Virus record (IMG/VR): IMGVR_UViG_2606217105_000017 | Source: a virus | Taxonomy: Duplodnaviria; Heunggongvirae; Uroviricota; Caudoviricetes | DNA length: 47,941 bases | Reading direction: 5' to 3' (one strand) | Part shown: piece after piece, positions 13,455 to 42,123 of the stretch | Layout of the letters: each line of letters opens with the position of its first letter | How positions within the stretch are numbered: the stretch's first letter is position 1 | The notes under the pieces: generated by a model | What the model was told of the DNA's origin: nothing | The model's database searches: none | What the model saw: the letters and a program-made list of their open reading frames with translations, nothing else | Position numbers and translations under genes: made by a program

Positions 13455-14027
13455 ATGAGAGACATTGATGTAAGAAAGGCTGTGCATGCCAAGATTCTGA
13501 GAGATCATCATAAAGATCCTGACACCCTAATCATTGATGAGTTTACGATGAATCTAGGGGCTAGCAGAGCTGATATAGCAGTGATCAATGGGCTTATACA
13601 TGGTTATGAGTTGAAGAGCAAGAGTGATAACTTGCTCAGATTACCAGCGCAGGTGCAACATTACTCATCAGTGATGGATAAAGTAACGTTGGTTGTCTCT
13701 GATTGCCATCTTTATGATGCTTTAAGCATAGTTCCATCATGGTGGGGGATAAAGCAAGTTACGCAAGGTGCACGGCAAGGTATCCATTTAAAAACAATTC
13801 GAACTAGCAAGTTGAATCCACAAGTGGACAAACTTTCCTTAACAATGCTTCTTTGGAAAGATGAATTGCTTTCCCTATTAAGTGATGTAGGGGAGCTACA
13901 GAATTTGAAAAATAAACCTAAACGCGTCTTATGGTCAAAACTCGCCAATAGTATGGATGTTGGCGAGCTTCGTGAAGCTGTTCGAGTTAAACTTAAAGCC
14001 CGTAAAGAGTGGCGAGTTGCTCAATAA
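13455..14027 (+). CDS. PD-(D/E)xK-type putative nuclease, sce7726-family-like (190 aa)
   Basis: Motif ..DTLIIDEF..RADIAVINGLIHGYELKSKSD.. gives a D...E-x-K core; AT-rich codon usage unlike flanking phage genes. Confidence 0.55.
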   Translation: MRDIDVRKAVHAKILRDHHKDPDTLIIDEFTMNLGASRADIAVINGLIHGYELKSKSDNLLRLPAQVQHYSSVMDKVTLVVSDCHLYDALSIVPSWWGIKQVTQGARQGIHLKTIRTSKLNPQVDKLSLTMLLWKDELLSLLSDVGELQNLKNKPKRVLWSKLANSMDVGELREAVRVKLKARKEWRVAQ

Positions 14028-15090
14028 CCTTAGTTATGTGATGGTTTTGCCCAATCCTACGCCATACCTCTGGGCTACCAAATTTATAGTTACCAGAGGG
14101 ATTGGCTTTGTAGGCTTGATACTCGTTTGCATAATATTCTATGTCTCTATCTCCCGCACAGAATGTAGGCCCTGAATATTCTCGATGAGCAAGAATATCC
14201 TCACTATGTTTACCATATTGTTCATAACCAAAGCGATTAGCTACTCTTCCTCGAAATACCCAAAAGTCATTATCTCCAGAGTATCTGACGCTGGCAGATA
14301 CGCTAGGGAATCGCGTCGAAAGCCTATTAAAGTCGGGGTGCTGTACTCCATAATCACTATAAATCACATTTCTGGCAAGTTCTTTTCTATTCATTAAACT
14401 CTGCCATAAAATCCACTCGATTCGAGGTTGAGAATATAGACCAACAGAAATATCACTGAGATCTGTAGGAAATGAACCCCCAGAAATAATCACTTTCCTG
14501 TATTCATTGAGGTGCGCCAGATTGTTTATCAATCCCATTGCCAAAGTATATAGTTCGCCGGAATTAAGTTTATCCTCGGTTAACTCATCTCTTAAGTCAA
14601 TAATTATATCAATATTTGATAAAGGAATTCCCAGATGATTAATGTAATGCGTTATTAATTGTGGGTTAACCAGATCTAACGTAGTTAATCTCAAGCATAT
14701 TTCATTCTGCATTAATTCTTCAATCGCTCTTTTATAGTTAGATGGGCGAGTTGGTGAACTGACAGGAATAACTCTTATTCCCATATCTCTAACTTGATTA
14801 ACCGCATTCATTATAGGGTAATGATCTTCAGGAGAAATAAAATGCTCTTCAATTAATAATCCATCAATATAAACACCTTGCATATCTGAGCAAGATTTTG
14901 AGACTTTCTTTCCGAACTCTATAAGAGTCTCGTTATAACTCTTTAAGGCAATACCTGAATCAGGGTCAATTGGCACTGGTTCAATTTCGAGTAATGGCAA
15001 AATTTTTGATTTCTTTTCAATGGATAGCTGCGATAAAGCTGATAACTCAGAACGTTTCGCTTTCAGAATAGGAATATATGAAATTGTCAT
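13993..15090 (-). CDS. Beta-protein / sce7725-family-like protein (365 aa), convergent partner of the 13455-14027 gene
   Basis: Long AT-rich ORF; recalled resemblance to the Beta_protein family (P4 beta type); 3' end overlaps the partner by 35 nt. Confidence 0.5.
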   Translation of the reverse strand: MTISYIPILKAKRSELSALSQLSIEKKSKILPLLEIEPVPIDPDSGIALKSYNETLIEFGKKVSKSCSDMQGVYIDGLLIEEHFISPEDHYPIMNAVNQVRDMGIRVIPVSSPTRPSNYKRAIEELMQNEICLRLTTLDLVNPQLITHYINHLGIPLSNIDIIIDLRDELTEDKLNSGELYTLAMGLINNLAHLNEYRKVIISGGSFPTDLSDISVGLYSQPRIEWILWQSLMNRKELARNVIYSDYGVQHPDFNRLSTRFPSVSASVRYSGDNDFWVFRGRVANRFGYEQYGKHSEDILAHREYSGPTFCAGDRDIEYYANEYQAYKANPSGNYKFGSPEVWRRIGQNHHITKVIEQLATLYGL

Positions 15091-18870: not shown

Positions 18871-19297
18871 ATGTTTGGTATTTTCAAAAAGAAAACCCGC
18901 AAGGCCATTACTGAAGTGAAGAAAATGGAGAACCGCGACGCGGTGGAGGCGACCGTCTGGGGTGCATATTCCATTGCATACGCTGACGGCACCTGTGACG
19001 CGAAAGAAATCGCGGTACTGGAAAAAAACCATTGCAGCACTTCCTGTCTTTGCGCCGTTCTCCGGTGAGATTGCACAAATGAGTGCAAATATCCGCGCCC
19101 GTTATGAAGCGTCGCCGCGTTCTGCCAATGCCGAAGCTCTTCGTCAGCTGGCTGATGTTGCCGGTACTGATGATGCAGTTAATGTGCTGTGCCTGTGTCT
19201 GGATATCGCTGACCAGGACGGTATCGGTCAGGAAGAAGAAGCGCAACTGAAGAAAATTGCGCAGGCGCTGCAGTTGCCGCTGGAGCAGTACCTGTGA
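18871..19297 (+). pseudogene. TerB-like protein gene interrupted by a frameshift at an A7 run (19022-19028)
   Basis: Frame 1 (18871-19068) and frame 2 (to 19297) together give a TerB-like protein (..AYSIAYADGTCDAKEIAVLEK / ..LCLCLDIADQDGIGQEEEAQLKKIAQAL..); AAGAGGA SD. Confidence 0.6.
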
Positions 19298-20940: not shown

Positions 20941-21048
20941 ATGTGGAAATCTACAGGTGACAAGTTAATCACCGCGTTGATTGACGGCAAGCCACAATAC
21001 TTACGCATTGAAATGAGTGGTCAGCATGCTCGTTTGATTCGTGAGTAA
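20941..21048 (+). CDS. Small ORF (35 aa)
   Basis: AGGAG 7 nt upstream of ATG; hand-translated MWKSTGDKLITALIDGKPQYLRIEMSGQHARLIRE. Confidence 0.25.
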   Translation: MWKSTGDKLITALIDGKPQYLRIEMSGQHARLIRE

Positions 21049-21171
21049 CAGGCATTACAGCAGCCCTTCAGTGTGAGGGGCTGCGATAATGTCAAAGCTC
21101 GTTATCAGCACCCGCCGCGCACCCAGCGCACTGGCCGATAGCGGGCTTTTTTATTCATAAAGCGAGTCTGT

Positions 21172-21963
21172 ATGAGCGAGAAATTGAAGATCGGCTATCG
21201 CCCTTTACAAGAACTGTCTCCGTATGCACACAACGCCAGGACACACAGCCCTGAGCAGGTGGCACAACTGGTAGAAAGCATTAAGCAATTCGGCTGGACT
21301 AATCCGGTGCTGATTGATGAAAAGGGCGAAATTATTGCTGGTCACGGTCGCGTTATGGCGGCTGAAGTGCTCAAAATGGATTCCATTCCGGTCATCGTTC
21401 TGTCTGGTTTGATGGATGATCAGAAAAAGGCGTACCGCCTGGCAGATAATCGCCTGCCGATGAATGCTGGCTGGGATGAAGATCTGTTACGGATGGAGCT
21501 GTCGGACCTAATCAATGCTGATTTTGATGTCTCCCTGACAGGCTTCAGCCCGACAGAAATTGATGAACTGTTGACGGATGTTTTGCCCGGTACAGGAAAT
21601 GAGGAGGAGCCGTATACGACGAAAATTGATACGCCTGTTTATGAGCCGTCGGGCGGTAAACCGGATATCAGTGAACTGTACGACGATACGAAAACTCAGG
21701 AGCTGATCAGCCGGATACGTTCGGCGTCCCTTGATCCTGATATTGAGAAATTCCTCCTGTGTGCGGCAGAACGTCACACGGTGTTTAATTTCAGCAGAAT
21801 TGCGGACTATTACGCTCACGCCCCCGCTGAAATTCAGTGCCTTTTCGAGGATTCGGCGCTGGTGATCATTGATTATCAGCAGGCTATTGAAAATGGATTT
21901 GTCCGGATGACGCAGCGCATGGTGGAGATCATGCATGGCGGGGAGGAGGAGGAATATGCGTGA
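21172..21963 (+). CDS. ParB-like nuclease domain protein (263 aa)
   Basis: N-terminal ParB/Srx motif ..PVLIDEKGEIIAGHGRVMAA.. Confidence 0.7.
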   Translation: MSEKLKIGYRPLQELSPYAHNARTHSPEQVAQLVESIKQFGWTNPVLIDEKGEIIAGHGRVMAAEVLKMDSIPVIVLSGLMDDQKKAYRLADNRLPMNAGWDEDLLRMELSDLINADFDVSLTGFSPTEIDELLTDVLPGTGNEEEPYTTKIDTPVYEPSGGKPDISELYDDTKTQELISRIRSASLDPDIEKFLLCAAERHTVFNFSRIADYYAHAPAEIQCLFEDSALVIIDYQQAIENGFVRMTQRMVEIMHGGEEEEYA

Positions 21964-22888
21964 TGATTTTTGCGCCTTTATTCTGACTCACGGGCGACCG
22001 GACAAAGTTCTGACTTACCGGACGTTGCGTCGTGCTGGCTATACCGGGAACATTTTTATCGTTGTTGATGATGAAGATAAGACACGGCATCAGTACATAG
22101 CTGAATTTGGTGAACAGGTGCTGGTGTTTTCCAAATCCGATATCGCCAGTCGTTTTGACGAAGCCGATAATTTCGGTGACCGCCGCTCAATTTTTTACGC
22201 CCGTAATGCTTGTTTCGACCTGGCAAAACTGGTCGGGTGTAAATTCTTCATTCAGCTCGATGATGATTATCACGAGTTCCAGTTTCGGGTGGATCGCAAC
22301 TATGACCAGGCCTATTTTCCGATAAGAAAACTGGATGCGATCCTTTCTGAAATGCTGGCGTACTACGAATCAATACCTGCGCTTTCCATCGCTATGTCGC
22401 AGGGCGGGGATTTTCTTGGTGACAATGGCGGCCATGCTTCGTGGGTGAAACGCAAGGCAATGAACAGCTTTATCTGTTCGGTTGATCGACCGTTCTCATT
22501 CATGGGACGCATTAACGAGGATGTGAATACGTACACGAATCTCGGTCGCTGTGGTGAATTGTTTATGACGATCGGTGCTGTCCAGTTAGGGCAGAAACAG
22601 ACGCAGAAAAACAGCGGCGGAATGACCGAGCTGTATCTGGATTCCGGAACCTACGTTAAAAGTTTTTACTCCGTCATGTATGCGCCGTCGTGCGTAAAAA
22701 TCTCACTGATGGGTGCCAGCCATAAACGCATTCACCATCAGGTCACCTGGAACAACGCTGCAGTAAAAATCCTTCACGAAAAATACAGGAAGAAGACACC
22801 CTGCATATCAATGGGGGTGACAAATGATTCCGTATTCGAAAGTCGAGTCTCTGGCAGCGTGCCGGATGACTGCACAACAAATCGCTGA
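21956..22888 (+). CDS. Putative GT-A-fold nucleotide-sugar transferase-like protein (311 aa)
   Basis: Strong SD GGGAGGAGGAGG; motifs FIVVDDED and IQLDDDY look like DXD motifs; no methyltransferase PPY motif. Confidence 0.4.
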   Translation: MRDDFCAFILTHGRPDKVLTYRTLRRAGYTGNIFIVVDDEDKTRHQYIAEFGEQVLVFSKSDIASRFDEADNFGDRRSIFYARNACFDLAKLVGCKFFIQLDDDYHEFQFRVDRNYDQAYFPIRKLDAILSEMLAYYESIPALSIAMSQGGDFLGDNGGHASWVKRKAMNSFICSVDRPFSFMGRINEDVNTYTNLGRCGELFMTIGAVQLGQKQTQKNSGGMTELYLDSGTYVKSFYSVMYAPSCVKISLMGASHKRIHHQVTWNNAAVKILHEKYRKKTPCISMGVTNDSVFESRVSGSVPDDCTTNR

Positions 22889-23075
22889 CGTTCTGGATGT
22901 TGATCTGAACCGACTGAAAGAAAATCGGGAAGCAATGACAAATTTTTATGCGTCCATCCGTAAGGGCAGAGCGAAAGGTGAAGCCGAGCTACGGGCGGCA
23001 TTGTTTAAGCTTGCCAGAAAAGGGGATGCCTTTGCCCTGCGCGAACTACTCAGGGTGGATAAAAATCAGGATTAA
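22824..23075 (+). CDS. Hypothetical small protein (83 aa), overlaps the previous gene's 3' end
   Basis: GGGGGTGA SD before ATG 22824. Confidence 0.4.
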   Translation: MIPYSKVESLAACRMTAQQIADVLDVDLNRLKENREAMTNFYASIRKGRAKGEAELRAALFKLARKGDAFALRELLRVDKNQD

Positions 23076-23078
23076 CTG

Positions 23079-24170
23079 ATGAGCAGACCGGACTGGGGGG
23101 CGTTGCAGCAGGAGTATATTGCTGAATACACCCGCTCCGGTATATCTCCGGTGGCATGGTGTGAAGCAAGGGGACTGAATTACGCAACAGCCCGTCGTTA
23201 CATCAAAAAACCTCCGAAAAATGCGCAGACAGAAATGCGCAAAACTGCGCAAAAAAGTGCGCAGAAAAAATCTGCGCAGACTGCGCAAAAGCAGAACGGA
23301 AAATCTCAGAAAAAAAAGCCAGTATCCGATGCGTGCCTGAATAAGGGCGACACGGAGGAATTTTCGTTCTGTCCCGATGAATTCGGCATCTCAGAGCAGC
23401 AGACGAAATTTGCGATGCTGGTTGCACAGGGGAGAAAACTCGTTGAGGCATATCGCCTGGCAGGATACGAGTCAGAGGGGAATGCGGCCTACGTCACTGC
23501 CAGCCAGCTCCTAAGAAATCCTAAGGTTTATCGGGCTATCTCATGGTTCCGCAATCAGTACCAGAAACGCTATACCGCAGACCTAGATTTACTGGTGAGT
23601 CAGTTGATGGCCATTGTCCAGGCCGACCCCAATCAGTTGGCACAATTTCGCCGTGTTAACTGCCGTTATTGCTGGGGCGAGAATCATCTCTACCAGTGGC
23701 GTGATATTGCAGAATTCGATAAGGCAGCGGCACAGGCCTCCAGAGATGGCAAACCCGAGCCGGAATATGGAGGCCTCGGCTTTGTTGATAACGCCATACC
23801 CAATCCGGACTGCCCGAAGTGCTGCGGTGAGGGAACGGGACAGCTTTATATGGCTGATACCACTCTGCTTGATGGGGATGCGCGACAATTATATGCAGGG
23901 GCAAAGCTCGGGAAATTTGGTGTTGAGATCCTGCTGGAGGATAAGGCTGCCGCCCGGCGCGAACTTATCAAGCTGATAATGGCGACGAAAGGAGGTTCTG
24001 CTAGTGGTGCAACTGACAGTCGCAATGATCTGGAGCTTGAAGGACTGAGGCTTCGCAACGAAAAGCTGCGCACTGAGATTGAAAACCTCAAAAAAGGCGT
24101 GGGTGGTGAGAATAACGAAATAATTATCCACAACTCTCTGCCGATGCCGGGAGTGGATAATGTCGATTGA
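23079..24170 (+). CDS. Terminase small subunit (363 aa)
   Basis: Segment ..AYRLAGYESEGNAAYVTASQLLRNPKVYRAI.. resembles the TerS signature; directly upstream of TerL with overlap. Confidence 0.65.
   Translation: MSRPDWGALQQEYIAEYTRSGISPVAWCEARGLNYATARRYIKKPPKNAQTEMRKTAQKSAQKKSAQTAQKQNGKSQKKKPVSDACLNKGDTEEFSFCPDEFGISEQQTKFAMLVAQGRKLVEAYRLAGYESEGNAAYVTASQLLRNPKVYRAISWFRNQYQKRYTADLDLLVSQLMAIVQADPNQLAQFRRVNCRYCWGENHLYQWRDIAEFDKAAAQASRDGKPEPEYGGLGFVDNAIPNPDCPKCCGEGTGQLYMADTTLLDGDARQLYAGAKLGKFGVEILLEDKAAARRELIKLIMATKGGSASGATDSRNDLELEGLRLRNEKLRTEIENLKKGVGGENNEIIIHNSLPMPGVDNVD
23220..23290 (+). repeat. Array of six TGCGCA(G/A)A direct repeats inside terS
   Basis: Copies spaced 9-15 bp apart; encodes the AQK-rich low-complexity linker. 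Confidence 0.5.
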
Positions 24171-25488
24171 AATCTACCTCCCAAAACCTCATGAGGGGCA
24201 AATAGCTGCATGGACGGCGGCAATAGAGGAACGCTTCCACGCGGTATGCTGTGGTCGTCGCTGGGGTAAAACGGTGATGCTGGTGAACATCGCTACCAGT
24301 TTCGCGACGCGGAAATTTGCCGTTCCTACCACCGGGCAGCTTATCGCGGGTAGGGTGGGGATTTTTACCGCACAATACCGACAGTACCAGGAAATCTGGG
24401 ATGAAATTAGCGCCGTTCTGCAACCGCTGATCCTCAGTCAGTCAAAAAATGAAAAGCGCATCATTCTCCGGAACGGTGGCCGCATCGACTTTTGGGTAAC
24501 GGACAATAACAAACTGGCCGGACGTGGGCGTAAGTATCACGCTGTGCTGATTGATGAGGCCGCATTCACTAAATCGCCGGAAATGCTCGAGGAAATCTGG
24601 CCCCGCGCTATACGCCCGACGCTTGTCGATTACCGCGGCTGTGCGTGGGTATTTTCCACACCAAACGGTATCGACGAGAGCAATTTTTTCTACGCGATAT
24701 GCCACGATGAATCCCTGGGATTTGTCATGCACCATGCGCCAACTTCATCGAATCCGTATATTCCGAAAGAAGAACTGGAGGAAACGGAGAAGAAATCTGA
24801 TCCGCGCGTCTGGCAGCAGGAATATCTTGCCGAGTTCGTGGACTGGTCCAAAGATGCGTTACTCGATGTCGATAAGCTGCTGGTGGACGGTCAGCCGATT
24901 GAGATGCCACCGCATTGCGACATGATTTTCGCAGTGATGGATACGGCGCTGAAAGGCGGGACCGAAAATGATGGTACTGGCGTGGTGTATTTCGCTTATG
25001 AGTCAACGTATTCGGACGAGCCAAAACTGACGATTATTGACTGGGATGTGACGCAAATTAAAGCGTCATTGCTTCCTGAATATATCCCGGGCGTTTATGA
25101 CAACCTCGAGCGCCTGGCGAAATTATGCCGTCCGCGTCTGGGCAGCCAGGGAATTTTTATGGAAGACGCTGCGATGGGGGCAATCCTCAACCAGAAGGCG
25201 GAAACCGAAGGTTGGGATATGACGCCGATTAAATCGGCACTAACCAGCAAAGGCAAAGACGAACGGGCGGTGATGGCATCCAGCTACCACTATCAGGGGA
25301 TGTGCAAAATCGTCCGGGAGGCTTACGACAAGACCGTTTCATTCAAACGCACCACCGCAAACCACCTCATTAAGCAAATAGCCGGGTTCCACCTGGCAGA
25401 CAAAGACGCACATAAACGTGCTGATGACCTTTTCGATTGTTACACCTACGGATTGATTATCGCGCACGGTAATTACGCGGAATTGTAA
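24160..25488 (+). CDS. Terminase large subunit (442 aa)
   Basis: Walker A-like ..CCGRRWGKT..; C-terminal nuclease-domain acidic residues. Confidence 0.85.
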   Translation: MSIEIYLPKPHEGQIAAWTAAIEERFHAVCCGRRWGKTVMLVNIATSFATRKFAVPTTGQLIAGRVGIFTAQYRQYQEIWDEISAVLQPLILSQSKNEKRIILRNGGRIDFWVTDNNKLAGRGRKYHAVLIDEAAFTKSPEMLEEIWPRAIRPTLVDYRGCAWVFSTPNGIDESNFFYAICHDESLGFVMHHAPTSSNPYIPKEELEETEKKSDPRVWQQEYLAEFVDWSKDALLDVDKLLVDGQPIEMPPHCDMIFAVMDTALKGGTENDGTGVVYFAYESTYSDEPKLTIIDWDVTQIKASLLPEYIPGVYDNLERLAKLCRPRLGSQGIFMEDAAMGAILNQKAETEGWDMTPIKSALTSKGKDERAVMASSYHYQGMCKIVREAYDKTVSFKRTTANHLIKQIAGFHLADKDAHKRADDLFDCYTYGLIIAHGNYAEL

Positions 25489-25506: not shown

Positions 25507-26943
25507 ATGGCTGAGATCGAGATTTCTGTAAATCTCAGTTCTTCGCTGATGCGCATTCTTGAGGCTGAAGAAATTCAGCCGGGAACCGACATTGGCTATG
25601 AACTGTGTAAACTGCTGTGGCAGTACCACCCGCTGGGCGGGAAACTTGTCGAAAAACCCATACTGATGGCGATGTGTAAGCCGCGCCAGTACAACGTGGA
25701 GACAGACCCTGACGAGCGGGTTGTGCGGCGTTTTCAGGAGGTATGGGAACGTATGAAGGTTAACGAGAAGATTAAAAATCTTTTTTTTCTGTCTCGTTGC
25801 TACGGTGCTGCAGCGATCGGCGTGGGCACCGACAGTGTTTCATGTCGTGAACCGCTTCCGACGTTCGGACTGACAGAAGAGGATGTGTATATCAACGCGT
25901 GGGATCCGTTGAACGCTTCCGGTTCGATGGTGACTGACCAGAACCCAAACAGTCCGTTTTTCCAGGAAGCCAATAAAAAGCTGAAGATTGGCGGAAAAGA
26001 CTGGCATCCGTCACGCACACTAAAAATCTTCAACGGCACACCGATTTATCTGGAGTTTCAGAGTTCATCGTTCGGATTCACCGGGCGAAGCGTATTTCAG
26101 CGCGTTCTTTATTCCCTGAAATCCTATATCAATACGATGGAGGCGAATGATCTCGTCAGCCAGAAGGCGGGCGTACTGGTAGCTAAAGTTGTGCAGTATG
26201 GCTCGAAACTTGACGGGATCATGGCTGCCGCCACGGGACGAAAAAGGGAAAACGTCAAAGAGGCAAAAAATAAAGGTGTGCTTAGTATCGGGAAGGATGA
26301 GGATGTTACCTCGCTGAATCTACAAAACATCGATGGTGCGCTAAACGCTGCACGCGACAATATTATTTCCGATATTGCGTCAGGGAGTGACGTTCCGGCG
26401 ATCCTTATTAAAGAGGAAGCCTTTTCGAATGGTTTCGGTGAGGGGACCGAAGATTCGAAAGCCGTCAGCCAGTATATCGATGGTGTACGCCAGCAGATTG
26501 AACCTGTGATGGATTATTTCGAACGCCTGGTGCAGTACATCGCCTGGAACGAGGAATTTTATCAGTCGCTGAAAAATGATTACCCGGACATCATAACTGA
26601 CGACTATAAAACCACGTTTTACCAGTGGCGACGTGAATTTACCGCGACGTGGCAGGAGCTGGTGGAGGAGTCGCCGGACAAACGCCGGGAAAGCGACAGT
26701 AAAGTGATTCAACAGGCGATAGCACTTTTCTCTGCTGTGTCGCCACAGGTTGATCCTGAAAACCGCGCCGCCGTCACTGAATGGCTGGCAAGCCTTGTTA
26801 ATGCCACGCAAACCTATGGCGAAGCTCCACTCATCATTGATGTGGACGCGCTGGCGAATTATGAACCACCGAAGCAGGAGACGCCTGATGGCAATTTCCA
26901 TCCGGGCGGTGAGGAAGAAGAAACGGATCAGGACGCTGTATGA
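25507..26943 (+). CDS. Portal protein (478 aa)
   Basis: Size and position immediately after TerL; acidic C-terminus. Confidence 0.6.
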   Translation: MAEIEISVNLSSSLMRILEAEEIQPGTDIGYELCKLLWQYHPLGGKLVEKPILMAMCKPRQYNVETDPDERVVRRFQEVWERMKVNEKIKNLFFLSRCYGAAAIGVGTDSVSCREPLPTFGLTEEDVYINAWDPLNASGSMVTDQNPNSPFFQEANKKLKIGGKDWHPSRTLKIFNGTPIYLEFQSSSFGFTGRSVFQRVLYSLKSYINTMEANDLVSQKAGVLVAKVVQYGSKLDGIMAAATGRKRENVKEAKNKGVLSIGKDEDVTSLNLQNIDGALNAARDNIISDIASGSDVPAILIKEEAFSNGFGEGTEDSKAVSQYIDGVRQQIEPVMDYFERLVQYIAWNEEFYQSLKNDYPDIITDDYKTTFYQWRREFTATWQELVEESPDKRRESDSKVIQQAIALFSAVSPQVDPENRAAVTEWLASLVNATQTYGEAPLIIDVDALANYEPPKQETPDGNFHPGGEEEETDQDAV

Positions 26944-40812: not shown

Positions 40813-40962
40813 ATCACAGTTTTATGATAAAACTTTTACCTTGGTTTGGAGTGCTGTAGAGAGATATTTTAGGGGAGGCGAGTAATTTTCTAAGCTGGAG
40901 CATATTGACATATATTATTTCGGATTTGCAAAATACAGATTGTAACCATGGAGGAGACAAGC

Positions 40963-42123
40963 ATGGAAAATTTTGCAAATAAGTTAAAAATACACACAGA
41001 GCATGTTGCAAAAATGGGGGTGTTTTGTACAACTGAAGAAACGACAAAACAAGCACTCATTATGCCATTACTAGATATTCTTGGTTTTACTCCGTATGAT
41101 CCAAGAAAAGTCAAAGCTGAGTATAGTGCTGACTTCCCCGGGGTTAAGGCTAATGAACGGGTTGATTACGCTTTATTTTGTCATGATGTTCCTGTGATGT
41201 TCATTGAGGCGAAATCGTTTTCAGAACAAATTGATAATCACTGCCCACAGCTATCAAGATATTTTAATTCAACACCGGAAGTTACTATATCAGCCATTAC
41301 AAATGGTGTTGAATGGCGTTTTTTTACGGATTTGAAACAAAAAAACATAATGGATTCAACGCCGTTTTTAAAATTAAGAATGGATTCTCTAACTCACTCC
41401 GATATTACACAATTATTTCGTTTTCGTTATGATAAATTCAAACCAGAGGCTTTACGGACACTGGCTGAAGAAAGTGTTTATTTGAATTCATTTACTAAAA
41501 CAATCAGTTCTAGTCTTCGTGAAGTTGATCTGGAGTTTGTTCGATATGTTGCTAGTCGTTCAAATATTGAGAGGCAACTTAATCAGAGATTTCTTGAGTT
41601 CGTGACTCCATTAGTTAAACAGGCCGTTGAGCGCGCTGTTAGCGCAATGGTGGTTTCCGGGCTATCTACACAACCGGTAGAGCAAACTAAAGAAAATGAT
41701 GCAACGGATACACAAGTTAATAACGCCATTGTTGATGAAGAAAACCCCAACATAATAACCACAGCCAAAGAATTGGAGCTATTTGAAAGGGTAAAACAAA
41801 TCATACAAACAGAAGATAATATAGAATATAAAGATACTGAGTCATATTTCGGTGTACTATTGAATGGTAAAACTAATAGATGGCTGTTAAGATTTTATGA
41901 TAAAAAATCTTCATTTATAACTTTACCTATTTCGCTTAGTGAAGTTCAGTTGAATGAAATAAGACGAGCTCGACTTGATACGGATGGTAAAAGGATACAT
42001 ATAACTAATCCGGAAGATATACTTCGCATATCTGGTTTGATTCTGGATTCATACGAGTATGTTAAAAATGATGATAATTTCCGCCGAGGGTCCAGAGTGA
42101 GCAGTTTAGAAGAGGTTGAATAA
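40963..42123 (+). CDS. Moron: PD-(D/E)xK nuclease-domain protein (HsdR-N-like N-terminus), 386 aa from SD-supported ATG
   Basis: AT-rich gene with GGAGGAG SD; motif ..ERVDYALFCHDVPVMFIEAKS..QLSRYF..ITNGVEWRFF..; followed by a bidirectional terminator; interrupts baseplate gene order. Confidence 0.6.
   Translation: MENFANKLKIHTEHVAKMGVFCTTEETTKQALIMPLLDILGFTPYDPRKVKAEYSADFPGVKANERVDYALFCHDVPVMFIEAKSFSEQIDNHCPQLSRYFNSTPEVTISAITNGVEWRFFTDLKQKNIMDSTPFLKLRMDSLTHSDITQLFRFRYDKFKPEALRTLAEESVYLNSFTKTISSSLREVDLEFVRYVASRSNIERQLNQRFLEFVTPLVKQAVERAVSAMVVSGLSTQPVEQTKENDATDTQVNNAIVDEENPNIITTAKELELFERVKQIIQTEDNIEYKDTESYFGVLLNGKTNRWLLRFYDKKSSFITLPISLSEVQLNEIRRARLDTDGKRIHITNPEDILRISGLILDSYEYVKNDDNFRRGSRVSSLEEVE

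Follow-up and report, generated by a model that had tools for sequence, protein, structure and literature searches.

A conserved pair of ParB-like and TAGT-family glycosyltransferase genes beside the phage terminase genes, and its possible role as a two-subunit DNA modification cassette

TAGT glycosyltransferases, ParB-assisted enzymes and the locus compared with them

The TAGT family of glycosyltransferases was reportedly defined by Iyer et al. in 2013. To our knowledge, all of its characterised members transfer to a hydroxyl group. Canonical DNA has no hydroxyl except at its ends. The phage enzymes of this family (PF20691) glycosylate 5hmC that is made by a C5-methyltransferase and a phage TET, and those TET-linked glycosyltransferases that were tested are active in E. 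coli without a ParB (Burke 2021, PMC8256090; Pyle 2023/2024). 'Solitary' TAGTs are found in 288 of 753 TAGT-encoding phage genomes (PMC13216743), and solitary glycosyltransferases make up ~65% of the mined glycosyltransferase contigs (Pyle et al.); the role of such enzymes is left open by recent papers. In a separate class of phage enzymes, the thymine dioxygenase 5mYOX176 requires ParB176 on dsDNA (O'Toole 2026, PMC13229309).

Here we analyse a gene pair in an E. coli prophage stretch of 47,941 nucleotides (Caudoviricetes; IMG/VR record IMGVR_UViG_2606217105_000017), referred to as the window. A first-pass annotation had described a ParB-like gene paired with a DXD-motif protein upstream of the terminase genes, and this layout holds: both ORFs are on the + strand, with TerS and TerL downstream. 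The features of the locus are:

21040..21165, + strand: structured intergenic RNA, two G+C-rich hairpins, judged by fold energy against shuffles
21172..21963, + strand: partner (putative adaptor) gene, ParB/Srx-like, 263 aa, pI 4.5; Pfam ParB_N, PHROG 620
21613..21648, + strand: linear motif of the partner, Y148-T-T-K-I-D-T-P155-V-Y157-E-P, inside a linker predicted to be disordered
21667..21891, + strand: acidic helical C-terminal module of the partner, aa 166-240, its most conserved part
21940..21963, + strand: coupling junction, with the Shine-Dalgarno run at 21940-21954, the TAGT ATG at 21956 and the ParB stop TGA at 21961-21963
21956..22888, + strand: TAGT gene, putative catalytic subunit, 310 aa, soluble GT-A glycosyltransferase, PF20691
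22866..23075, + strand: HTH ORF of 69 aa, similar to a portion of a small terminase subunit; a PGAP CDS in a near-identical genome
23079-24170, + strand: TerS; together with TerL covered by Pfam Terminase_2 / Terminase_6N and PHROG 51 / PHROG 2
24160-25488, + strand: TerL, directly downstream with TerS; Pfam and PHROG matches

The window enzyme shares with the TET/JBP-linked TAGTs the PF20691 domain, the GT-A fold, the R/DDD/ED catalytic set, its phage origin and a location that is often near ParB and terminase genes. However, a Pfam scan of the window ORFs of at least ~95 aa and a few shorter ones found no TET/JBP, thymidylate-synthase-like hydroxymethylase or DNA methyltransferase, no C5-methyltransferase or TET/JBP is conserved near the pair, and the partner is obligate here. 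With 5mYOX176/ParB176 the locus has in common a modification-family enzyme encoded beside a ParB that is predicted to consist of an NBD, a helix-helix segment, an unstructured linker and a CTD but to lack a DNA-binding HTH. In both cases terminase genes are frequent neighbours, and the NTP-binding residues may be neither indispensable nor fully conserved. In contrast to 5mYOX176, the enzyme here is a GT-A glycosyltransferase and not an Fe/2OG dioxygenase, and its dependence on the partner is proposed by analogy. The core of the partner also differs from ParB176, in that it consists of an acidic C-terminal module and a Y-T-x-K...P-x-Y motif, which can occur without the ParB domain.

The ParB-fused phage DNA methyltransferases (PHROG 498; PDLC03229; Kaljevic 2025, PMC12704722) are close to the N-terminal 140 residues of the partner (E 4e-38 to 6e-50), are likewise found in prophages beside terminase genes, and likewise have a ParB module that serves a modification enzyme. 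Here, by contrast, the enzyme stands as a polypeptide of its own and belongs to the sugar transferases, and a dedicated adaptor module, not covalent fusion, would link it to the ParB domain.

PHROG 842 and RefSeq label this TAGT family 'T2/T6 beta-glucosyl-HMC-alpha-glucosyltransferase' (ggt). The window protein and T6 ggt are phage GT-A enzymes that both exceed the PF20691 threshold, T6 ggt with only 35.8 bits, but orthology to it (L162:12138-12923(-)) is rejected by BLASTP (best E 1.6) and hhalign (probability 0.1%). In addition, T6 has a dCMP hydroxymethylase and an alpha-glucosyltransferase beside ggt, whereas neither of these, nor a beta-glucosyltransferase, occurs among the window ORFs scanned. 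On these comparisons, transferring the ggt annotation to the window protein is unwarranted. The protein is also named 'GREB1-related' in NCBI and UniRef. GREB1 is an animal protein O-GlcNAc transferase that acts on the oestrogen receptor (PMC7968844); it has the same Pfam domain but is large, multidomain and eukaryotic and has no ParB partner, and its sole bearing here is to prove that TAGT-family enzymes can use protein acceptors.

A conserved transferase-partner pair

The 310-aa protein matches PF20691 over profile positions 4-205 of 205 (122.8 bits, E 2.4e-35; cut-off 27.5) and PHROG 842 with an E-value of 2.9e-102. It has the GT-A (nucleotide-diphospho-sugar transferase) fold, and its best-matching GT-A enzymes are polymer or protein glycosyltransferases. 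Thus the suggestion that this is a sugar or nucleotide transferase proved sound, with no sign of a non-transferase fold, and no methyltransferase family matches the protein, in keeping with the absence of methyltransferase motifs noted before. The key residues are R14, D38/D41 in FIVVDDED (residues 34-41, nt 22055-22078), the D102-D104 DXD in IQLDDDY (residues 99-105, nt 22250-22270) and E188-D189 in NEDVN. In an alignment of 20 sequences, down to 58% identity, D38, D41, D102, D103, D104 and Y105 are invariant, which bears out the two acidic motifs first picked out by eye. The catalytic set R...DDD...ED[Y/F] of Pyle et al. is likewise invariant there (R14, D102-D103-D104, E188-D189), although the third position of the ED motif is an invariant V instead of Y/F. 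At the C-terminus, an enterobacterial extension of ~25 residues overlaps the following ORF. Two conserved loops of the TAGT (69-76 and 216-237) are of low model confidence. PADLOC contains no match to the TAGT, and matches the partner only through the ParB part of a methyltransferase model, which leaves no known defence or anti-defence system at this locus.

In the partner, the Pfam ParB_N (PF02195) match is marginal (E 2.7e-6, 27.7 bits vs. a cut-off of 26.3), while PHROG 620, 'ParB-like partition protein', matches at 3.8e-88. The protein consists of a ParB/Srx NTP-binding-type domain (aa 1-95), a helix-helix segment (aa 103-134), a disordered linker and a helical C-terminal module. In an AF2 model built on a fairly shallow alignment of enterobacterial homologues, the NBD is confident, the overall pLDDT is 68.5, and residues 136-166 fall below 50. 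The N-domain of the model matches Noc, ParB, PadC and KorB (Foldseek, E 4e-6), with weak matches to Srx and SerK. Over residues 7-144, the partner matches the N-terminal part of ParB-fused type II DNA methyltransferases at 4.4e-38 (PADLOC MTase_II, PDLC03229), and PHROG 498, which holds ParB-domain-fused DNA methyltransferases, matches at 6e-50. A canonical partition ParB (ParABS) was rejected, since TIGR00180 gives 35.7 bits against a cut-off of 58.45, there is no HTH domain, and no parA was found among the window ORFs scanned. Neither the partner nor the TAGT has a 19-residue hydrophobic window above 1.4, so both are soluble. The family median pI is acidic for the partner (4.74) and basic for the TAGT (8.68).

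The ParB domain is not the constant part of the partner. The window protein carries GHGR (57-60, box II GxxR) and ADNR (91-94, box III). In 38 diverse partners, G57 is invariant and N93 is kept in 37/38, but R60 is kept in 33/38, the box II Arg being replaced in the other 5. Furthermore, the entire domain is missing from 19 of 145 partners (13%), and it is thus an optional add-on. What remains constant is the unannotated acidic C-terminal module together with a Y-[T/S]-x-K-x3-P-x-Y motif, in which Y148, P155 and Y157 are invariant in 38/38 partners and position 149 is T or S in 37/38. This motif could serve the transferase as a docking site or be an acceptor for O-glycosylation. The invariant residues of the module are L195, R201, A211, Y214, Q222, E226, L230, I233, D234 and A238. 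The module has no sequence relative in Pfam, NCBIfam or PDB; armadillo-repeat matches in the PDB sequence search were judged spurious, none being significant. Because it is acidic, the module is unlikely to bind DNA. A profile of the motif and module retrieves 80 metagenomic loci, with a TAGT gene downstream in 78 of the 79 that have room for one; the module is specific to TAGT-linked proteins.

The longest form of the TAGT ORF (21935-22888) has 317 aa. PGAP uses the ATG at 21956 in a 99.9%-identical genome, which gives 310 aa; the ORF first reported as 311 aa is therefore real, with the length corrected by one residue. This ATG follows a purine-rich Shine-Dalgarno run, GGGGAGGAGGAGGAA, at 21940-21954, and the partner stop and TAGT start overlap by 8 nt (ATGCGTGA), as expected if the two genes are translationally coupled. 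Downstream, the 5' end of the HTH ORF overlaps the 3' end of the TAGT gene by 23 nt, and a longer, 83-aa form of this ORF (22824-23075) matches PHROG 309 at 2.5e-22. Upstream, the intergenic RNA at 21040-21165 folds at -58.6 kcal/mol (z = -7.3 vs. 200 shuffles). Its second hairpin, which ends in GCGGGCUUUUUUAUU ~15 nt 5' of the ParB start codon, resembles a terminator and may act as one; a simple terminator scan made no call at 21040-21165, the loop being too long. The cassette sits in the late operon, behind the lysis genes and the terminator-like hairpin, through which Q-antiterminated late transcription would read it.

The pairing of partner and TAGT holds in both directions across 158 loci of many phyla. 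Starting from the TAGT, the partner lies directly upstream in ~72 of the 77 testable loci among 80 from many phyla. In 142 full pairs the median distance between domain ends is 29 nt, with 129/142 at or below 120 nt, and the two proteins show correlated pairwise distances (r = 0.51, a value reached in 0/500 permutations). Terminase large subunits of at least 5 Pfam families are encoded within two genes downstream of the pair. Lactobacillus phage phi jlb1 and the archaeal virus HHTV-2 share this gene order, and the arrangement thus extends to virulent-type and archaeal viruses; c5 and NTR1 are further complete phages with the pair. Identity stays at 45-58% between E. coli and relatives in Bacteroidota, Bacillota, CPR bacteria and a haloarchaeal virus, which implies a near-universal substrate. 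We found no description of a ParB-TAGT pair in lambdoid prophages in the literature.

In E. coli the module is present in ~29% of complete genomes. The intact proteins of 310 and 263 aa are the representatives of clusters with 2693 and 1812 sequences, respectively. Many E. coli copies are truncated or joined to tail-fibre fragments; in K-12 all that is left is the N-terminal ~85 residues of the partner, as the 87-aa YnaK stub, and YdaY, considered as a TAGT remnant, is unrelated. A scan of viral contigs yielded almost only E. coli relatives. Two apparent partner-TAGT fusions were discarded: P0081, considered as a Rosetta-stone case, is a decayed copy with an in-frame stop and internal deletions in its contig, and P0373 is a deletion derivative.

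Possible acceptors of the transferred sugar

A supplier of hydroxylated bases was searched for in and around the pair. The Pfam scan of the window ORFs of at least ~95 aa gave no hidden base-hydroxylating or base-methylating enzyme. At ~75 diverse loci, no such family occurs among the top 25 listed for each scan of the +1/+2 and -1/-2 genes: terminases dominate downstream, no family recurs upstream, and 5mYOX, considered as a conserved neighbour, is not among the families listed. Nor is a base-hydroxylating enzyme encoded between partner and TAGT in the 7 exceptional loci that have genes there. All genes inserted into the pair or fused with it code for enzymes that build or tailor glycans (a second TAGT, Methyltransf_23, a sulfotransferase, CofD/HAD plus a nucleotidyltransferase). 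Some operons have nucleotidyltransferase and phosphatase genes inserted, and two TAGTs (P0154, P0203) carry P-loop kinase-like N-terminal fusions. Within the families listed at the ~75 loci, the conserved unit thus appears to include no base-hydroxylating enzyme. The prophage has no known route to 5hmC or 5hmU, on which enzymes of this family usually act.

We tentatively favour, at somewhat less than even confidence, the reading that the cassette encodes a two-subunit, late-expressed DNA glycosyltransferase, analogous to the ParB-dependent phage T-dioxygenases and with an undefined acceptor. The locus would be a self-contained, translationally coupled two-gene phage cassette, in which the TAGT uses a nucleotide-sugar donor via a DXD/Mn2+ site. 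The partner would be an acidic adaptor, whose motif and C-terminal module probably bind and activate the TAGT in a physical complex, and whose ParB/Srx domain, of the phage methyltransferase type, probably loads the enzyme onto dsDNA, as ParB176 does for 5mYOX176. From its place at the head of the late packaging operon, the cassette would modify phage DNA fresh from replication, shortly before it is packaged or while this goes on, and the sugar would shield this DNA against the nucleases of the next host. The points in favour are the two-way linkage, the terminase-side position, the type of ParB domain, the ParB176-like layout, the basic TAGT and acidic partner, and the 45-58% identity across phyla. 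Against it count the failure to find a supplier of hydroxylated bases in the window ORFs scanned and the listed neighbour families, the use of a hydroxyl by all characterised family members when canonical DNA has one only at its ends, the loss of the presumed DNA-loading domain in 19/145 partners and of the box II Arg in 5/38, the acidic constant module, the protein glycosylation by GREB1 (PMC7968844), and the absence of any report that we could find of modified DNA in cultured pair-carrying phages, including those of Lactobacillus, among which only HHTV-2 was specifically searched for it. The DNA half of the first proposal, DNA or host-surface modification, is therefore kept as an unproven target.

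A further reading, to which we give limited credence, is that the cassette is self-sufficient and needs no prior hydroxymethylation of its substrate: it might modify canonical DNA directly, at a base or an end, or assemble a glycan on its adaptor's invariant Tyr/Thr motif. Given the hydroxyl-only acceptors in the family and the lack of hydroxyls within canonical DNA, direct DNA glycosylation would be new chemistry.

The main rival, unlikely on balance, is protein O-glycosylation, either of the partner's own Tyr/Thr motif in a glycogenin-like priming reaction or of a phage or host protein that the adaptor presents. No hydroxylated base is required for it. The only strictly constant companion of the TAGT is a module with conserved hydroxyls (Y148, T/S149, Y157) in a disordered linker, although a docking peptide would equally show an invariant linear motif. 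A ParB domain is lacking in 13% of partners, which can evidently do without it, and the acidic module has no DNA-like binding potential, but most partners retain a ParB domain of the DNA-methyltransferase-associated type, and the terminase-side position and basic TAGT suit a DNA-linked role. GREB1 O-GlcNAcylates a protein, and the operon inserts and fusions extend or tailor glycans with no need for base chemistry; against this, a glycosylated adaptor has no evident function.

It is distinctly unlikely that the DNA reading should give way to a small-molecule or nucleotide target, in which a metabolite (an immune signalling nucleotide or the nucleotide-sugar pool) is glycosylated or the donor hydrolysed, for anti-defence or metabolic takeover, with the ParB/Srx fold as an NTP-binding or phosphotransfer enzyme like sulfiredoxin or the serine kinase SerK. 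This fold does include true enzymes, in line with the weak Foldseek matches to Srx and SerK, and the kinase-like fusions and the inserted nucleotidyltransferase and phosphatase genes point the same way. However, an enzymatic partner fits poorly with the loss of the box II Arg in some partners and of the whole domain in 13%, the best GT-A matches are polymer or protein glycosyltransferases, and the lack of a TAGT match in PADLOC leaves no tie to known signalling-based defences.

Very unlikely, in our judgement, is a hydroxymethylated base obtained from elsewhere, i.e. from a divergent oxidase encoded at another site, or in the hmC/hmU DNA of superinfecting phages that the prophage would exclude. 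The known chemistry of the family, sugar onto 5hmC, 5hmU or glucosyl-hmC, would make this natural; thousands of contigs hold divergent dioxygenases that escape PF12851 (O'Toole et al.), and an antiviral use of prophage glycosyltransferases was suggested by Pyle et al. Yet neither a dioxygenase nor a ThyA-like enzyme is found among the window ORFs of at least ~95 aa, no such gene is conserved within +/-2 genes (families listed, ~75 loci) or between the pair (7 loci), the late-operon place behind the lysis genes and the terminator-like hairpin is not that of a lysogen-expressed gene, and virulent-type and archaeal viruses have the same arrangement.

Conversion of the host surface (O-antigen, LPS or teichoic acid), the other half of the first proposal, is highly improbable. 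Unlike Gtr-type seroconversion loci, the cassette has no membrane segments, no GtrA/GtrB/Gtr(type) families occur among the window ORFs of at least ~95 aa or the neighbour families listed at the ~75 loci, and its position is in the late, packaging operon; furthermore, identity holds at 45-58% between hosts, haloarchaea and CPR bacteria among them, whose envelopes are unrelated, and the obligate partner is cytoplasmic, acidic and of ParB type. Least probable of all is that the pair assists packaging and transfers no sugar, or is a relic in decay, which would fit the truncated and tail-fibre-fused E. coli copies and the K-12 YnaK stub but not the catalytic residues invariant across phyla, the two intact window ORFs, or the intact forms heading their large clusters.

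Implications for 'solitary' TAGT enzymes

Taken together, the linkage data indicate that the 'solitary' TAGT is not solitary, but comes with an obligate adaptor module that was previously undescribed, and the locus offers a tractable E. coli model for these enzymes. If the target is DNA, the cassette would represent a new route to glycosylated DNA, with a bearing on the evasion of restriction and Type IV defence, on host range in phage therapy and on sequencing artefacts. If it is protein, a whole branch of phage 'DNA glycosyltransferase' annotations would be wrong. Finally, should the cassette be self-sufficient, it would define a new and very widespread class of phage modification, now mislabelled as a T-even gentiobiosyl transferase, that is present in ~29% of complete E. 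coli genomes, in many bacterial phyla and in a haloarchaeal virus.

The two genes and the glycosyltransferase

The first-pass annotation described a ParB-like nuclease-domain gene paired with a DXD protein upstream of the terminase genes, and both ORFs are real:

21172-21963, + strand: the partner, 263 aa, with a ParB/Srx N-terminal domain (Pfam, PHROG 620, Foldseek)
21956-22888, + strand: the glycosyltransferase (TAGT), 310 aa from its most probable start, ATG 21956

This ATG is preceded by the ribosome-binding run GGAGGAGGAGG, and the ORF that it opens shares 8 nt with the stop-codon end of the partner. At the sequence level, these two features point to translational coupling of the partner and TAGT.

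The second protein, earlier suggested to be a transferase, is a strong member of Pfam PF20691 (‘TET-associated glycosyltransferase’, TAGT; 122.8 bits against a cut-off of 27.5), and its best matches in a viral structure library are other TAGT-domain phage proteins. The two acidic motifs that prompted the suggestion are residues 34-41 and 99-105, with aspartates that do not vary among homologues down to 58% identity. The alignment of homologues also shows R14, D102-D104 and E188-D189 as invariant. They correspond to the R...DDD...ED[Y/F] site described for phage GT-A enzymes that act on DNA and for the base-J glucosyltransferase of trypanosomes. TAGT of the window is a soluble, mildly basic protein (family median pI 8.68). 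Elsewhere in the family, the TAGT domain is fused to a SAM methyltransferase, a sulfotransferase, a second glycosyltransferase or a P-loop domain. Three metagenomic members (P0154, P0191 and P0203; 462-474 aa) carry an N-terminal extension of about 180 residues that matches no Pfam family and contains a Walker A motif (GxSCAGKS/T); this extension is a P-loop kinase-like domain and recalls the DNA kinases that take part in thymidine hypermodification.

The label ‘beta-glucosyl-HMC-alpha-glucosyltransferase’ (PHROG 842, RefSeq) is not justified for this protein. The experimentally defined T6 enzyme passes the same Pfam model with only 35.8 bits, and neither pairwise nor profile comparison finds any similarity between it and the TAGT of the window. 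It should be noted that RefSeq spreads this name, which implies hydroxymethylcytosine DNA, of which no evidence came up here, to TAGT homologues including that of an archaeal virus: NC_021340.1 (HHTV-2) gp22, NC_024206.1 (phi jlb1) jlb1_025, and proteins of Lactobacillus phages c5, LL-Ku, phiLdb and Ld17 and of Vibrio and Porphyromonas phages.

Architecture of the partner and its linkage to TAGT

The partner's N-terminus barely exceeds the Pfam ParB cut-off (27.7 bits); PHROG 620 matches at 3.8e-88 and Foldseek returns Noc, ParB and PadC for the ParB domain. This domain is a close relative of the N-terminal part of ParB-fused type II DNA methyltransferases (PADLOC 4.4e-38, PHROG 498 6e-50), and the box II arginine is kept in 33 of the 38 aligned partners. 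In the same 38-sequence alignment, the best-conserved parts are not the ParB domain but the following:

Partner residues 148-159: linear motif Y148-[T/S]-x-K-x3-P155-x-Y157-E-P
Partner residues 166-240: helical module with invariant L195, R201, A211, Y214, Q222, E226, L230, I233, D234 and A238

AlphaFold places the motif in a predicted disordered linker, within a layout of NBD, helix-helix, unstructured linker and CTD that has no HTH. The same layout has been described for ParB176, which activates a thymine dioxygenase of a phage (PMC13229309). The C-terminal module has no relatives by sequence in Pfam, NCBIfam or the PDB. This module is acidic (pI 4.5; family median 4.74), in contrast to the basic TAGT. 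Among 145 decidable partners, 19 consist of motif and module only (110-150 aa), and a search across the locus found no ParB domain in 17 of these.

The association holds in both directions. One genome per prokaryotic species was scanned for TAGT, which gave 80 loci at 45-98% identity in Enterobacterales, Bacteroidota, Bacillota, Chlorobiota, Planctomycetota, Verrucomicrobiota, Acidobacteriota, Actinomycetota, Alphaproteobacteria, CPR bacteria and others. Enough flank was available at 77 loci, and about 72 of these carry a partner homologue directly upstream, usually with an overlap of a few bases. In the reverse test, a profile of only the partner's C-terminal 108 residues was run on metagenomes, and TAGT follows on the same strand in 78 of 79 loci with room, mostly 15-40 nt away. 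Pooled, the two sets hold 142 complete pairs (median spacing 29 nt), and pairwise distances among the partners correlate with those among the TAGT proteins (r = 0.51, reached by none of 500 permutations). Cultured viruses with the same order include Lactobacillus phage phi jlb1 (ParB, TAGT, TerS, TerL, portal) and haloarchaeal virus HHTV-2. At seven loci a gene intervenes: a second TAGT, sometimes methyltransferase-fused; a Methyltransf_23 enzyme; a CofD/HAD protein with a MobA-like nucleotidyltransferase; or a histidine-phosphatase/cytidylyltransferase fusion. The intervening and fused genes all build or tailor a glycan, and none prepares a base.

Genomic position and spread in E. coli

Terminase large subunits of at least five Pfam types, together with small subunits, are the families met most often in the first two genes after TAGT; the upstream neighbours are mixed (SSB, RusA, VRR-NUC, polymerases, lysis genes). 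The cassette thus moves as a unit and inserts at the head of the packaging operon, whatever the terminase type.

The window is a complete Rac-like lambdoid prophage of E. coli, ordered as integrase, RecT/RecE, repressor with YdaS/T-type regulators, replication genes, Q-like antiterminator, two holins, M15 endolysin, partner and TAGT, terminase, portal, and head and tail genes. Since the cassette comes after the lysis genes and an intergenic RNA with a strong, terminator-like structure (z = -7.3), it would be expressed from the Q-antiterminated late transcript.

At ≥90% nucleotide identity, 21172-22888 occurs in 1566 of 5426 complete E. coli genomes, 889 of them with near full-length copies, and in ten sequenced Escherichia/Salmonella phage records. 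Of the partner, E. coli K-12 retains YnaK alone, a stub of the 87 N-terminal residues; it has no TAGT and is therefore a clean reconstitution host. K-12 YdaY, considered as a remnant of TAGT, is unrelated. In genomes near-identical to the window, PGAP calls ynaK a truncated pseudogene (‘missing C-terminus’, 258 nt), despite an intact 263-aa ORF in NZ_CP024273.1 (6001-6792, equivalent to 21172-21963). The call apparently stems from the use of the 87-aa K-12 stub as the reference protein, which leaves the conserved C-terminal module invisible in RefSeq annotation. The first 421 nt of the cassette (the ParB domain) alone match 15 mostly conjugative enterobacterial plasmids at 94% identity (e.g. 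NZ_CP034659.1, 361545-361965), and so the ParB module also circulates apart from the C-terminal module and TAGT.

Several other regions of the prophage are of separate interest. A two-gene low-GC island (0.38-0.41) in the early region, 13455-15090, looks like a candidate prophage-borne anti-phage defence module; its genes (13455-14027, +; 13993-15090, -) encode a 190-aa sce7726-family protein (PADLOC ‘cll’, 2.4e-28) and a 365-aa ‘Beta protein’ (PADLOC PD-Lambda-2_C, 3.2e-42). Among the tail genes, a 391-aa ORF (40948-42123, +; segment GC 36%) looks like a moron of foreign origin. It weakly matches a type I restriction endonuclease in NCBIfam (E 3e-4), and is probably the source of an HSDR_N match (Pfam; type I restriction R-subunit N-terminal, PD-(D/E)xK-like) to one of 23 late-region ORFs scanned together. 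Overlapping ORFs between the Q-like gene and the holins (18871-19068, +; 18962-19297, +) have as counterpart in a near-identical genome a PGAP ‘tellurite resistance TerB family protein, frameshifted’. For the portal protein (25507-26943, +; Pfam Phage_portal_3, 1.8e-13), PGAP gives the name ‘anti-CBASS protein Acb1 family protein’ in a genome with 99.9% identity, probably an annotation artefact.

Probable target of the pair

The partner and TAGT would form a complex. Of the two options in the earlier proposal, a module modifying DNA or one modifying the host surface, DNA is the most likely target, albeit tentatively. This view rests on the activity of characterised family members on DNA, on a ParB domain of the kind associated with methyltransferases, and on the resemblance in architecture to an enzyme whose modification of DNA was shown by experiment to depend on a ParB; the position of the pair and its very high conservation also suggest a universal substrate, dealt with at packaging. 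There is a serious chemical objection. To our knowledge, every characterised TAGT family member transfers its sugar to a hydroxyl group, and this prophage puts none on its DNA: no TET/JBP dioxygenase, thymidylate-synthase-like hydroxymethylase or DNA methyltransferase was found among the window ORFs scanned, and none recurs beside the pair in neighbour-gene scans of diverse loci.

The main rival, less probable and yet of some weight, is protein O-glycosylation, perhaps on the partner's own invariant Tyr/Thr motif. It is favoured by the dispensable ParB domain, the acidic constant module of the partner and the precedent of GREB1 (PMC7968844). A small-molecule target is improbable, and slightly more so is a need for a hydroxymethylated base from another source or for the hmC DNA of other phages. 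Host-surface conversion, the other option in the earlier proposal, is very unlikely, and a non-catalytic or decayed pair is the least likely of all.

Earlier work has reported ParB, glycosyltransferase and terminase genes together near phage dioxygenases (PMC8256090, PMC13229309, Pyle et al.). According to two recent papers, TAGT enzymes commonly have no base-modification partner that can be recognised, and the function of such enzymes is undefined (PMC13216743; Pyle et al.). In the literature searched, which did not extend to the founding paper of Iyer et al. (2013), we found no description of the obligate adaptor module with its invariant motif, of the optional nature of the ParB domain, or of an E. 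coli Rac-type prophage example. Taken together, the pair is a conserved cassette in which a GT-A glycosyltransferase and its dedicated acidic adaptor are translationally coupled, located at the start of the packaging operon in very diverse tailed viruses.
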